Notes: a model not told the origin generated them from the sequence alone. 64,000 bases of DNA from Parachitinimonas caeni (GCF_030129945.1 NZ_JARRAF010000017.1:1-64000), one strand, 5' to 3'. Numbered from the stretch's first letter, positions 3,284 through 45,587 are shown. Program-made: numbers and translations.

Positions 3284-4047
3284 CCGAACAGCCCTTCCTC
3301 GGTACCCAGTAGTTTGACAAAGGCATCTTCCAGCTGATCACACCCAGACTGGGCCAGGAGGTCGGATGGAGTGCCTGCGGCGACGACCTGTCCGCCGTGG
3401 ATGATGAGGATGCGGTCGCACAGGGCAGCAACTTCCTGCATCAGGTGGCTGGAAAACATCACACATTTTCCGGATTGCCGCAGATCTTGAATCAGCCCGC
3501 GCATGGCTCGGGTGGCCAGGATGTCGAGCCCATTGGTCGGTTCGTCCAGCAGAATGGTTTGCGGATCATGCACCAGTGCTCTGGCGACGGCGGTTTTCAT
3601 CCGCTCCCCTTGTGAAAATCCCAGCGCCGGGCGGTCGGCGATCTTGCTCATGCCCAGCCGCTCGATCAGTTGCTGGCTGCGTTCGGCAGCAAGTTGGTCG
3701 GGCAATCCTTGCAGCTTGGCAAAGTACTCAATGTTCTCGCGGGCGCTGAGTCGTGGATATAGCCCTTTGGCATCCCCCAGCAGGCCCAGCTGACGACGGG
3801 CTGCGGCACCTTCCCGCTCGATGTCATGGCCATCAATGCGGACGCTGCCGGAATCGGCCCGGATGACGCCGGCGAGAATCCGCAGCAGCGTGGTTTTTCC
3901 AGCGCCGTTCGGGCCGAGCAGGCCGGTGACCTCGCCATCGGCGGCGGTAAAGCTGACTTCCTTCAGGGCTTCGACCTGGCTTTTGACTCTGCGTAGGCGG
4001 CCGGTAACGGTTTCGAAGTGCTTGGCAACTTTGATGACTTCGATCAT
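3280..4047 (-). CDS. ABC transporter ATP-binding protein (NatA-like)
   Basis: Walker A GPNGAGKTT, signature LSQGERMK and Walker B ILLDEP are present. Confidence 0.9.
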   Translation of the reverse strand: MIEVIKVAKHFETVTGRLRRVKSQVEALKEVSFTAADGEVTGLLGPNGAGKTTLLRILAGVIRADSGSVRIDGHDIEREGAAARRQLGLLGDAKGLYPRLSARENIEYFAKLQGLPDQLAAERSQQLIERLGMSKIADRPALGFSQGERMKTAVARALVHDPQTILLDEPTNGLDILATRAMRGLIQDLRQSGKCVMFSSHLMQEVAALCDRILIIHGGQVVAAGTPSDLLAQSGCDQLEDAFVKLLGTEEGLFG

Positions 4048-5498: not shown

Positions 5499-5769
5499 AA
5501 GCAGGAACGGTCTTCGTCGGCGAGGAATGGCAGATTCTCTACGAGCGCTGGCTGTGGCGGCAAGTCTTGTCCGCGTCGATATCCGCCTGCTGGCCCGGCG
5601 TTTGTGGGGGCTACGATACTTTTTATGGTGCTGCAGTCGGAGTTCGCGCATGTGGCAGGCGGTTTTCGTGCTGGATTGCGGTAGTATGGGCGCCGCCCAA
5701 GAGGCCACTTAGAAAACGTCAATAGAGCCTAACTACATATCACCGAATATCAGATTCTGGAGCGAGACC

Positions 5770-27611: not shown

Positions 27612-27825
27612 CTAGGTTCTGTTGACGTTTTGTTCTCGGATCGTGTTTCGTCGGATTTGGGCCTGATGCAGGGCGAAAAGTGCGCCGCTAAGTGGTAGGC
27701 CACGCCATTTCCCATCTGGGCGCGCAGGTTGTAAGGCATTGCGATGCAAACCAACAGTCTGGCGGTCAATGCCGCAGCGGGCCCAAATCTGGCGAAGCCC
27801 TCCCTCCTCGCAACGGGGATGCCGT
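27612..27825. repeat. MITE-like repeat, long form, with degenerate right end
   Basis: Left TIR CTAGGTTCTGTTGACGTTTTGTT. The interior is the reverse complement of the copy at 38191-38428. The right TIR is eroded. Confidence 0.7.
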
Positions 27826-28094
27826 GGCTGTAAGCCGCTTTGCGGCGACAGCCACGCAAGGCCGGGGTCGAGTTTTGGGTGGGGCGTCGTCTGGGTTTGC
27901 TTAGTTAGCTCGCTAAACCGCGCTTACCCTACTTCGCGCTGTCCCTGAGTCTTCTCACGCCATCGGCCTGCGGTCGGGTAGAAGTCAGAGGGACCTGAGC
28001 AGCAATGGGCGCGAATGCGCTGCCGAGCGATCTGGATTGCTCTGGCATGTTGAGCCTACAGCATCGGCGATCCTGGTTCGGCGGTGGCTACCAA

Positions 28095-33263: not shown

Positions 33264-33802
33264 AAGGATGTCGGCAGCCAGTGTTGAAGGCTGGCTCATT
33301 CGTTTAATTGATCAACCATCCGTTTTTCCATTGCACCAATATCCAGGTATCCGGTTCTGTTGACATTTGAAGTAACCGCTTAATTTTTAAGGGTATCAAG
33401 AAATTTAAAACTCAGATTTCCAATTTAAAATCAATCGCTTGTGTGAGAGGTTCAACAGGGCCTGGCAAGTAAGGGGCTGATGTGGCGGCGCAATCGGCCT
33501 CCTCTCGCTTGCTCCAGTTCGAGGGTGGCTCGGTTAGAATAGCGTCTTTGTCAGCAAAAAATAGAATTTCGAAAGAGCGGCCGCAGGCCGTTTTTCTATT
33601 TTAAATCAGTCATGTGCTGACCAGATGTAGCCCCAATGATGAAGTTCGGCGGCGGCTTGGTCTGATATCCAGCCTATTGTTATTAGGCTCGGTTGACACG
33701 TCTTTTACGGTCGCGTCGGGCGGCAATACTTGACTCGGCGTGACTGGAAACAAAACCTCAACGGTGCCTAACGCACCATTTACCCAAACAGAAATCCGTA
33801 AT

Positions 33803-36379
33803 ATGACGAAAAGTGGCGAATCGAATCACACGCCCATGATGCAGCAATATCTGCGCATCAAAAGTGAGCACCCCGATAAACTTGTGTTTTATCGAATGGG
33901 CGATTTTTACGAATTATTTTTCGATGATGCAGTAAAAGCAGCGCGTCTGCTCGATATCACCCTGACCGCACGAGGTCAGTCTGGCGGTCAGCCCATCAAG
34001 ATGGCTGGCGTGCCTTTTCATTCGGCTGAACAGTATCTGGCGCGGCTGGTAAAGCTGGGTGAGTCAGTCGCAATCTGCGAGCAGATTGGTGATCCGGCCA
34101 CCAGCAAGGGGCCGGTTGAGCGCAAAGTGGTTCGCGTCATTACTCCCGGCACCCTGACGGATTCCGCGCTGCTGGATGACAAACGCGAGAATCGGTTGCT
34201 CGCGATCGTTGCGCATCGAGGCAGGCTGGGTTTGGCTTGGTTGACGCTGGCATCGGGCGAGTTCCGTGTGATGGAAACCGCAGCCGACAAGCTGCCGAGC
34301 GAGCTGGAACGTTTGCGCCCGGCGGAAGTGTTGGTGCCGGAGGATCTGCCCTTGGCGTTGCCGCAGCAGATGGGATGTGTGGTGAAGCGATTGCCTTCCT
34401 GGCAGTTCGATACTGATGCAGCAATGCGCAATCTGGTGCGCCACTTTGGCACTCAGGATCTCTCGGGCTTCGGTGTGGAGCCTGACCAGCCGAACTGGCT
34501 GGCAGTGGGGCCGGCCGGTGCGTTGCTTGAGTATGGTCGCGCCACCCAGGGCGGCGCGTTGCCGCATGTTACCGCGCTGACGGTCGAGACAACGGGGGCT
34601 TACGTCGAGCTGGACGCGGCGACCCGGCGGAATCTGGAGCTGACGGAAACCATTCGTGGCGAGGCAGCGCCAACGCTGCTGTCTTTGCTTGATACCTGCG
34701 CCACCAGCATGGGTAGTCGTCTGCTGGCCCACTGGCTGCATCATCCCCTGCGCCGCCAGTCGAAGATCGTACGCCGCCGTGATGCGACACGGGCCTTGCA
34801 GGAGGACCGTCAGTTCGAGCCGGTACGGCAGGTGCTTGGCGCCGTCCTGGATATTGAGCGCATCGTGTCACGCGTGGCTTTGCGCAGTGCCCGCCCGCGT
34901 GACTTGTCCAGTCTGCGGGATAGCCTGCGTGCCTTGCCTGAGTTGATTCCGCTGTTGCCGGGTAACGAATTGTTGCAGGAACTGGCGCGTCAATTGCCAC
35001 CGCCTGCCGGGGTGCTGGAGCTGCTGCAGGCCGCGATGGCCGATGAGCCCTCGGTTGTGGTGCGGGAAGGCGGGGTGATTCGCGATGGCTACGACGCTGA
35101 ACTCGATGAACTGAGGGCGATCCAGACCAACTGTGGTGAATTCCTGCTGGCTTTGGAGAGTCGCGAGCGTGAGCGCACCGGCATTCACAACCTCAAGGTT
35201 GAATACAACCGGGTGCATGGTTTTTATATTGAAGTCAGCAACGGACAGGCTGACAAAGTGCCCGACGACTACCGCCGACGCCAGACCCTGAAGAACGCCG
35301 AACGCTATATCACGCCAGAGCTGAAAACCTTTGAAGACAAGGCGCTGTCCGCTCAGGAGCGGGCGTTGGCAATGGAAAAACGCCTGTACGAGGCCTTGCT
35401 GGAACAACTGCAGCCCCATGTACCGGCCCTGCAGCTGACGGCAGCGGCAGTGGCCGGGCTGGATGTGCTCTCGACCTTTGCTGAACGCGCCTCCGAGCTG
35501 GATTGGGTTGCGCCGGAGTTTGTTACCGAGCCGACATTGAATATTGTGGCTGGCCGTCACCCGGTTGTGGAGGCGCAGCTTCGTCAGGCACAGGCTGGTG
35601 AGTTCGTCGCGAACGATCTCAACTTTCACGCAGGGCGCAAGCTTCTGCTGATTACCGGCCCGAATATGGGTGGTAAGTCTACTTATATGCGGCAGGTGGC
35701 GTTGATTGTGCTGCTGGCGCACTGCGGCGCCTTCGTGCCTGCCAGAGCGGCCACCATCGGGCCGATAGACCGCATCTTTACCCGCATCGGGGCCTCGGAT
35801 GATCTCGCCGGGGGGCGCTCCACCTTCATGGTGGAGATGACCGAGACCGCCAATATTCTCAACAACTCGGCCGAAGCTTCGTTGGTCTTGATGGATGAGG
35901 TCGGGCGTGGCACCTCTACCTTCGATGGGCTGGCCCTTGCCTGGGCGATCGCCAGGCAGTTGATCGAGAAAAACCGCAGCTACACGCTATTTGCCACCCA
36001 TTATTTCGAGTTGACACGACTGGCCCTCGACTACCCACAGGTTGCCAACGTCCATCTTGATGCGGTCGAACATAAGGACAAGATTGTGTTCCTGCATAGC
36101 GTGGAAGAGGGGCCAGCCAGCCAGAGCTATGGCTTGCAGGTGGCCCAGCTGGCGGGGGTGCCAAGAGAGGTGATCCGGGCGGCACGCAAGCATCTGGCCG
36201 AGCTGGAACAGCAGAGTGTCACTGCATCTGGTCAAGGCGATCTGTTTGCCAGTGCCCCTGTTGTCATCGAGCCGGAACCCAACCCGGCCTTGGAACGTTT
36301 GCTGGCGACCGATGTCGATGAACTCAGTCCGCGTGCAGCGCTTGAGTTGCTGTACGAACTCAGGCGCCTGGCGAGCTAG
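33803..36379 (+). CDS. mutS: DNA mismatch repair protein MutS
   Basis: N-terminal [12 protein letters not shown], Walker [10 protein letters not shown] and a C-terminus conserved with E. coli MutS. The stop TAG lies inside the CTAGG of a repeat TIR. Confidence 0.9.
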
Positions 36380-36403
36380 GTGCTGTTGACGTTTTGCTTC
36401 CGG
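36376..36403. repeat. solo left TIR of the MITE-like family
   Basis: CTAGGTGCTGTTGACGTTTTGCTTCCGG with no matching right end. It overlaps the mutS stop codon. Confidence 0.6.
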
Positions 36404-36785
36404 CCACTTCTGGCCGAGGATGCCGCGTCAGCGGTTGCTGGGGAGTACGGTTGGATTGTCTGGTGATTGGCTGTCATGAACAGATGATTGTCAGACTTGA
36501 AGATCGTACTTGGTAGACGCGCAAAAATTCGCTATAAACGGATGATCAGGATATTTATCAGTAATTCCTGATCCAGACATGCAGGACGACGAGGCTTTGG
36601 CTGGTACAAATTCAAATTTTTGAAATTGTCCAGGCAGGCAGAAACGAAGCTGAAAGTGAAACTTAAAAAAGCGAACAACAAACCGTGTTGTTTGCATTGC
36701 CGAAGCTTCAGCTTCTTCGGCGTTCAGTGAGTAAAGCCGGACGGGCGGGGGCCGGGCCGGCATTAGCCCAAGGAGTTTATGAACG

Positions 36786-38190: not shown

Positions 38191-38428
38191 CTAGGCTCTG
38201 TTGACGTTTTGTTCCCCGGCATCCCCCTTGCGGGGGCGGAGGGTTTCGCCGGATTTGGGCCTGCTGCCGTGTTGACTGCCAGGCTGTTGGCTTGCGATGC
38301 AAGCCTTACAGCCTGTGCGCCCAGACGGGAAATCGCGTGGCTTATCACTAAGCGGCGCGCTTTTTGCCTTGCATCAGGCCCAAATCCGACGAAACGCGAT
38401 CCGGAAATAAAACGTCAACAGAGCCTAG
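38191..38428. repeat. MITE-like repeat, complete long form (238 bp)
   Basis: Left TIR CTAGGCTCTGTTGACGTTTTGTT and right TIR AAAACGTCAACAGAGCCTAG. Internal inverted GGATTTGGGCC/GGCCCAAATCC. The right-end CTAG supplies the stop codon of the hydrolase gene at 38425. Confidence 0.8.
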
Positions 38429-40537: not shown

Positions 40538-40756
40538 AAAGTCGCTGACCTCACCGTGGCGCGCCTGTTTCGCACCATTTTATTGCGCACCGCACCAATT
40601 TGGGTTGACAGCGGAAGGTAAATAAACCGATAATGCGCCCCGTTGAGATGCATTGATTGCTTCTTGATAGTTTCTCCTCTATTTCTCCTTTGTAGAATTC
40701 AGCCCGGATTGTCAAATCCGGGCTTTTTTTTTGAATTTTTCATAAGGAGAAATCCG

Positions 40757-41233
40757 ATGTCCTCTGTAACCCGCATCAGCGCTCAATTGTTGGACACGGT
40801 GACCGCCGCCGCACAATCACTTCCACGCCGTCGGCGCAATCATAATTTTCATAATTCAGATTCGGCAATTTGCCACAGATTATTAAATGCTGTTGAGCCG
40901 GAGAGCTATGTCGCGCCCCATTGTCATCTCGATTCAACAAAAGATGAAATGATGGTTGTGTTGCGGGGCAGCATAGGCATCGTGATTTTCGATGCCGAAG
41001 GCGTTGTGATCGACACTGTAGTGTTGAGCCAAAATGGTCCGGTTTACGGGGTGGATCTCCCGCCGGGCACCATTCACAGCCTTGTGTCCTTAGAGTCGGG
41101 CTCGGTTATTCTGGAAGCCAAGGCTGGCCCCTACCTGCCGCTGTCGGATGAAGAAAAGATGCACTGGGCGCCCGCGGAGAATGCTCCGGGTTGGGAAGTC
41201 TACCGCGACCGGCTGATTGCTCTCTTCAAGTAG
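40757..41233 (+). CDS. cupin-fold protein (WbuC-like)
   Basis: 158-aa protein with a His-containing cupin motif APHCHLDSTKDEMMVVLRGS. The start at 40757 follows AAGGAGA. Confidence 0.5.
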   Translation: MSSVTRISAQLLDTVTAAAQSLPRRRRNHNFHNSDSAICHRLLNAVEPESYVAPHCHLDSTKDEMMVVLRGSIGIVIFDAEGVVIDTVVLSQNGPVYGVDLPPGTIHSLVSLESGSVILEAKAGPYLPLSDEEKMHWAPAENAPGWEVYRDRLIALFK

Positions 41234-45527: not shown

Positions 45528-45587
45528 CTAGGTTCTGTTGACGTTTTGTTTTCGACTGGAAAGTAGAACGTCAACAGCGCCTCGTAC
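45528..45587. repeat. MITE-like repeat, short (60-bp) form
   Basis: CTAGGTTCTGTTGACGTTTTGTTTTCGACTGGAAAGTAGAACGTCAACAGCGCCTCG. Confidence 0.65.

Follow-up and report, generated by a model that had tools for sequence, protein, structure and literature searches.

Transposases of the IS427 group of the IS5 family are typically encoded by two frameshifted ORFs, and IS1301, at ~844 bp, belongs to this group. ISPsy2, the insertion sequence from which the element MITEPsy1 is derived, is placed in the IS5 group as well. Duplication of TA is also a property of IS630/Tc1-mariner elements, IS630 having CTAG as its target. For IS1301 in Neisseria meningitidis, PMC2193550 (citing Hilse 1996) gives the target as 5'-AYTAG-3', with TA duplicated. 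ISPsp10 of Pseudomonas, a further member of the IS427 group of the IS5 family, likewise duplicates TA, and its transposase ORF has no stop codon of its own and uses the TAA of the target (PMC4133298). MITEPsy1, a 100-nt MITE of Pseudomonas syringae with IS-like inverted repeats, inserts at CTAG or YTAA (PMC3189936). Correia/NEMIS, RUP and ERIC are short, non-coding, multicopy repeats that end in TA, form long hairpins and are often co-transcribed at the 3' ends of genes (PMC2229807).

The window analysed here, the whole stretch of 64,000 nucleotides from Parachitinimonas caeni, comes from a host, identified as this species by a 100% GNAT match, that belongs to the Neisseria-related betaproteobacteria. 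Within it, the pattern CTAGGYTCTGTTGACGTTTT (up to three mismatches) has 16 matches where 0.29 are expected, and these mark about 10 copies or sites of 29-232 bp without coding capacity. Being short, non-coding and multicopy within 64 kb, the repeats are MITEs, non-coding derivatives of IS5-family insertion sequences (ISs) with which they share the terminal inverted repeat GGYTCTGTTGACG. The tetramer CTAG is scarce in the window (40 occurrences in 64 kb), and roughly a quarter of these are repeat ends. At 53032..53241, a 179-bp MITE (53032-53210, TTAG...CTAG) is followed by a 29-bp mini-element (53210-53238) that sits in the TA of its right junction, with the CTAG at 53207-53210 common to both; tandem arrangements of this kind also occur at loci L038 and L056. 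A 57-bp mini-MITE (45528..45584, CTAG...CCTCG), its right TA mutated, lies in a non-coding spacer and contributes no stop codon, and a degenerate 89-bp copy (33683..33771, TTAG...CTAA) is found upstream of the mutS start at 33803. The long copy of ~215 bp on the plus strand (27612..27826) retains an intact left-end CTAG, lacks the right repeat and matches 38303-38428 at 88% over 126 nt, and a lone 20-nt repeat end on the minus strand (5713..5732, TTAG...) is situated between divergent genes. No Rfam family matched the repeats in our search. The Correia repeat (TATAGTGGATTAA...) bears no relation to GGYTCTGTTGACG. RUP and ERIC likewise differ in repeat sequence, and for this TA-ended group as a whole the parent IS family differs too, RUP being linked to IS630-Spn1 (PMC2229807) and the present parents belonging to the IS5 family.

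The same repeat ends enclose a single ORF of ~250 aa at five loci (L016, L060, L063, L023 and L082, the last of these on an Azotobacter plasmid). These parent ISs measure ~820-860 bp (826 bp in L016, 851 bp in L060), and the first 18-21 nt of the MITEs are identical to the IS ends in L016, L060 and L082. The parent ORF scores 261-263 bits against the NCBIfam model for IS5 family transposases (NF033580, cutoff 110) and matches the Pfam families DUF4096 (PF13340) and DDE_Tnp_1 (PF01609); its homologues from Chitinimonas, Azotobacter and Methyloglobulus are annotated as IS5 family transposases. An IS630/Tc1-mariner parentage, suggested by the CTAG/TA flanks, was considered and rejected, the transposase having significant matches only to IS5, IS982, IS1182 and IS4 models and none for IS630. 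All parent IS copies found sit in C/T-TA...TA-G, and lengths of 826-857 bp together with Y-TA...TA-R flanks fit the length and TA context of the IS427 group and of IS1301-like elements. The parents resemble IS1301 in the YTAG context of their junctions, in a probable duplication of TA and in a size of ~0.85 kb. They differ in that IS1301 has an A before the Y and our junctions show no preference for A, a comparison based on its published consensus. The ORF is uninterrupted in L016, L060 and L082, without the two-ORF frameshift feature; for IS1301, by contrast, two ORFs are predicted (PMC2828469). The 64-kb window itself holds no transposase gene, remnant or similarity, no autonomous copy from this species appears among the best 120 transposase homologues, and the search for one yielded just a truncated copy in Chitinimonas sp. 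BJB300 (L025).

An initial annotation of the window had placed four TAG stop codons in the terminal CTAG of a repeat. All four were confirmed at those positions, each inside a CTAG at the end of an 18-28 nt copy of CTAGGYTCTGTTGACGTTTT, and each of the four ORFs is matched by Pfam (MutS domains I-V, Abhydrolase, GNAT and, weakly at 1.5e-8, IcmW). The four differ in geometry: the mutS, alpha/beta-hydrolase and GNAT genes read into the repeat, and the ORF at 54081-54626 reads outward. In the three inward-reading genes TAG occupies positions 2-4 of CTAG, following the pattern ...xxC TAG GYTCTG....

The mutS stop (36377..36379, plus strand) is composed of host TA at 36377-36378 and the first G of the element at 36379, directly preceded by C36376, the third base of a serine codon, AGC. 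The decayed mini-element located here (36379..36438, plus strand) carries the left repeat GGTGCTGTTGACGTTTTGCTTCCGG and a putative degenerate right repeat, CGTCAGCGGTTGC, at 36426-36438, after which the sequence reads TG-G and not TA-G; alignment to full copies is confined to the left 28 nt, and the right boundary is uncertain. The protein ends within 0-3 residues of the ends of its closest homologues, which bears out the view that this is the natural C-terminus of MutS. For the hydrolase, the stop (38425..38427, minus strand) appears to combine a duplicated TA with the terminal C:G pair of a complete 232-bp MITE (38194..38425). This copy is bordered by TA at 38192-38193 and 38426-38427, with outer host bases C38191 and G38428 and a reconstructed target of CTAG, and the length of the hydrolase C-terminus is within the range seen in its closest orthologues from metagenomes.

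The GNAT stop (63392..63394, minus strand) adjoins a 50-bp mini-MITE made of two repeat ends and a 4-nt loop (63343..63392). Here TA occupies 63341-63342 and 63393-63394, with T63340 and G63395 as the host bases outside it, and the reconstructed target on the GNAT strand is C-TA-A. Since the far junction reads CC-TA-A, the GNAT stop before insertion was probably TAA, the two junctions together suggesting a change from CAC TAA to the present CAC TAG. At this gene the sequence also shows a second, terminator-like hairpin, flanked by runs of A and T, at ~63271-63298.

The fourth, IcmW-like ORF (54081-54626) stops at the outer edge of a lone 18-28 nt repeat end (54599..54626, minus strand). Over 18 nt this end equals the MITE repeat exactly, and over 28 nt it matches the right end of the L060 autonomous IS at 89%. 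The tail of the ORF through the repeat end reads ...CCT AAC GTC AAC AGA GCC TAG (...PNVNRA, stop), and the stop codon (54624-54626) consists of TA and a host base, G. This is the frame in which the parent transposase would reach a stop supplied by the target. The geometry is like that of ISPsp10, reading outward through the repeat end to TA plus a host base; in ISPsp10, though, it is the transposase that uses the target stop, whereas here a host ORF does so and the parent transposases terminate at a TGA of their own, 15 nt upstream in that frame. The only match to this ORF among 1.84 billion representative proteins was to itself; there being no usable homologues, its tail may be either native or a fusion made by deletion.

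We think it likely, with good confidence, that these overlaps are a by-product of target choice by an IS5-type transposase that targets YTAR and duplicates TA. The target would most likely be the palindrome 5'-Y-TA-R-3', mostly in the form CTAG, with its central TA duplicated, and with an element running from G to C every junction would read Y-TA-G from outside to inside. Where TA occupies codon positions 1 and 2, TA plus R can only be TAA or TAG, so that an in-frame target is always an existing stop codon. Insertion would then rebuild the stop as TA plus the G of the element, converting TAA to TAG where needed and leaving the protein unchanged. Insertions at stops would be nearly harmless and would persist, whereas those at YTAR within genes would presumably be purged by selection. 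In GC-rich genomes YTAR is rare, and a sizeable share of the tolerated sites are stop codons. For the spacer between the solute-binding-protein gene and the hydrolase, the predicted empty allele is ...GGCGGCTAGGCGCGCC...; for mutS it is ...GAG CTA G... and for GNAT ...GCC CAC TAA CAGC....

The initial annotation had proposed a comparison with orthologous loci in related strains to see the ancestral stop codons. The only close relative shares the insertions at mutS and GNAT and supplies no empty allele: the metagenome-assembled genome (MAG) GCA_041909315.1, of the same species at 98.9% identity, has the same mutS junction (L081) and the same GNAT insertion (L083). The next relatives are only ~75% identical in MutS, and the GNAT orthologues, at no more than 44% identity, are too distant to inform on the stop. 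At orthologous hydrolase loci the repeat was found in none of 80 metagenomic loci, and among the MAG and the other relatives compared we found no filled and empty pair of one locus.

To what extent stop codons are occupied beyond what YTAR targeting predicts can be judged from the distribution of sites. The window contains 178 YTAR sites, including 65 that are free and intergenic, 11 at free stop codons and 82 in coding sequence. Three to four of the ~10 insertion events are at stops against an expectation of 16-17%, and a model restricted to YTAR fits these counts (P 0.08-0.21). Most junctions are not at stop codons. When GC-rich hosts are pooled, stop junctions exceed the naive YTAR expectation by no more than ~2-fold, with P 0.02-0.11 depending on how events are counted. 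These data leave room for some extra bias towards stops beyond the choice of YTAR. A margin of up to 2-fold is, however, what would be expected if YTAR sites in promoters are less well tolerated than sites just after a stop, and we see no need for a stop-specific mechanism. Of the target preference proposed earlier, the TA/CTAG motif is involved and explains the overlap with stops, but gene ends as such are not preferred, the motif being YTAR anywhere. We regard as rather unlikely a safe-harbour strategy, in which this IS5-family lineage exploits stop codons and occupies them more than other YTAR sites. If it were true, each insertion would bring a TAA to TAG change with a fixed G at position +4 and a strong 3' hairpin, and a MITE burst would measurably shift both the stop-codon usage of the genome and its 3'-end processing.

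A related explanation is that placement next to stops was itself selected, the MITE hairpin serving as a 3' stabiliser, an RNase processing site or a terminator, and REP, ERIC and Correia repeats do influence mRNA stability and processing. The hairpins are certainly very stable: the RNA fold of the 232-bp copy reaches -151 kcal/mol (z -11.2), and z-scores are -5.0 for the 50-bp GNAT copy, -5.7 for 45528..45584 and -4.1 for 33683..33771. In addition, the mutS and GNAT insertions are common to two genomes 1.1% apart, and the pooled enrichment described above would accommodate a selective contribution. Against this, the decayed mutS copy folds no better than expected by a significance test (z -1.4), GNAT already has its own terminator-like hairpin at ~63271-63298, most copies lie away from stops, and the enrichment is neither robust to event counting nor beyond what lower tolerance of 5' regulatory YTAR sites would give. 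The hairpins also lack a U-tract. Terminator scans found no terminator-like site at any MITE end, and the bases after the hairpins are host flank without a T-run. The suggestion that a hairpin immediately after the stop could act as a terminator is therefore right as to the hairpin (z -5 to -11) but not as to a canonical intrinsic terminator. A stabilising or processing role of the kind seen in REP or Correia repeats is conceivable. Selection for the stop-adjacent position is, on balance, unlikely.

A different reading is that CTAG is the terminus of the element, or a 4-bp duplication of the kind made by the IS5 group, in which case the element would supply a new stop and replace or truncate the end of the gene. 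A scan with the pattern GGYTCTGTTGACGTTTT, which includes no flank bases and so samples the flanks without bias, covered a single genome for each species and recovered the repeat in Chitinilyticum, Chitinimonas, Chitinibacter, an Oxalobacteraceae MAG, many Methylococcales, Endozoicomonas and others. TA precedes 58 of the 96 sampled matches; the remaining 38 probably include many that arose by chance in unrelated genomes. Among the 58, this TA follows C in 48 cases and T in 10, never A or G, with no preference further out, and TA borders both ends of complete copies. CTAG is thus the commonest junction tetramer, as a CTAG terminus or a 4-bp duplication would have it, and there are precedents: ISMysh01 has 4-base CTAG direct repeats (PMC9241763), and MITEPsy1 duplicates 4 nt at CTAG/YTAA (PMC3189936). 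The outer base nevertheless varies between C and T while the repeat is conserved across distant taxa, and complete copies have unequal outer tetramers, namely TTAG...CTAG (53032-53210 and 63340-63395), TTAG...CTAA (33683-33771) and also CTAG...CTAA, with further unequal pairs at L006, L024 and L041. CTAG is therefore neither owned by the element nor a 4-bp duplication, which overturns both the earlier view that the terminus of the element donates the stop and the proposed duplication of CTAG. Unlike MITEPsy1, which duplicates its whole 4-nt target and differs in repeat sequence, these copies do not fit a 4-nt duplication.

Read from these junctions, the element proper extends from G to C, and CTAG is a composite of a host base, TA and the first G of the element; the element supplies only the G, the other three bases coming from the host. 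That TA is the target duplication is suggested by the flank statistics and by the precedents of IS1301 and ISPsp10. Where one element lies within the TA at the junction of another (53207-53241, L038 and L056), this is consistent with the reuse of a regenerated CTAG as a target.

The reading frames at the junctions bear on the same question. Elsewhere, TA+G forms the in-frame stop of genes identified by Pfam as encoding an S8 peptidase, an EAL protein, a LysR regulator, a PRA isomerase and an AhpC/Bcp peroxiredoxin. The same junction is found at uvrA in another genome, where UvrA, aligned to solved structures of the protein (PDB), ends at the natural C-terminus. Frame 0 thus holds six recognisable genes in other genomes and three in the window, while the two other inward frames, used as controls, gave only antisense-looking or unannotatable ORFs. 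The repeat has an inward TGA in frame +1, and random insertion at 3' ends should yield genes ending in R-L/F-C followed by that stop; among the frame +1 ORFs examined, none with such an ending encodes a recognisable protein. The strict frame specificity predicted by YTAR targeting is seen in the data. A stop newly supplied by the element also sits poorly with the natural C-termini kept by UvrA and the hydrolase, although MutS C-termini differ by 1-3 residues among relatives and a very short truncation there is conceivable. We accordingly judge an element-supplied stop very unlikely, whether from a CTAG terminus or from a 4-bp duplication. Pure coincidence is extremely unlikely: only four cases occur in 64 kb, one of them with the other geometry and one (mutS) decayed, but uniform placement over the 8.2 kb of intergenic DNA predicts ~0.06 exact stop overlaps (P of three or more ~3e-5), and the exact junction, with its frame specificity, recurs at six confirmed genes in unrelated genomes.

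As far as we have found, the MITE family is previously undescribed in this clade, is of a well-known kind and involves no new mechanism. In our literature search no paper described a coincidence of MITE ends with host stop codons, the nearest being the statement on the ISPsp10 transposase. For annotation, a TAG followed by GGYTCTGTTGACG in Parachitinimonas and its relatives is to be read as a MITE junction, neither a special terminator nor a gene truncation. Four of the 12 TAG stops in the window are MITE junctions, and in MITE-rich genomes TAG usage could be inflated by such junctions. The underlying rule may apply widely: a transposon that duplicates TA within YTAR would land in frame only on stop codons, turning TAA into TAG and leaving the protein intact.

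Tiny elements bearing the terminal inverted repeat, at 29-31 bp, comprise scarcely more than two repeat ends, and were found at window positions 53207-53241 and in L038 and L056, two loci from other genomes that carry the same repeat. Each of these occupies the junction TA of an adjacent element. Internal deletion and slippage are candidate origins, either of which may have produced such minimal hairpins. Within the AT-rich spacer upstream of mutS, a 16-nucleotide partial repeat (GGTTCTGTTGACATTT, 33353-33368) is not preceded by TA; it may be one more copy in decay, or the resemblance may be due to chance.

The mini-element next to the GNAT gene (63343-63392) allows a comparison with L083, the same insertion in a near-identical metagenome-assembled genome, where it lies at 3504-3560. 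The two copies differ at 3 of about 50 positions, whereas the locus around them is approximately 99% identical, which suggests, from this pair of sequences, that change inside the hairpin is faster than in the surrounding locus.

The sole candidate for an out-of-frame case is a 200-amino-acid ORF at a contig edge in L040, from an Oxalobacteraceae metagenome-assembled genome, which reads straight through the repeat in frame +2 (...YVDPLGSVDVLLRL...). Its sequence is protein-like, with no match in Pfam, and it may be a gene broken or lengthened by the insertion.

Just past the truncated MITE at 27612-27826, whose right repeat is missing, the stretch at 27850-28000 appeared structured on reading; Rfam and tRNA searches gave no match there. 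A full-length Rfam match to NmsRb (RF02877), the Neisseria metabolic switch regulator sRNA, was found on the plus strand at 40640-40729. It scores 75 bits, where the gathering score is 52, and overlaps the beginning of the ORF at 40643-41233, which matches DUF6016. The host is a Chitinimonas-like betaproteobacterium, far outside Neisseria.

Between the orphan IcmW-like ORF and a group of pilin-like genes lie five successive plus-strand ORFs (54664-59779) of 291, 246, 405, 393 and 371 amino acids, closely spaced or overlapping; this run is an uncharacterised operon, with no Pfam family detected in any of the five at E<=0.001. Beyond it lies a plus-strand tandem pair of regions encoding an N-terminal methylation/pilin-type signal (60006-60092 and 60377-60463, 82% identical over 87 nucleotides). 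The ORF at 59842-60192 has a Pfam N_methyl match. The pair has the appearance of type IV pilin-like genes that are paralogous and arranged in tandem.
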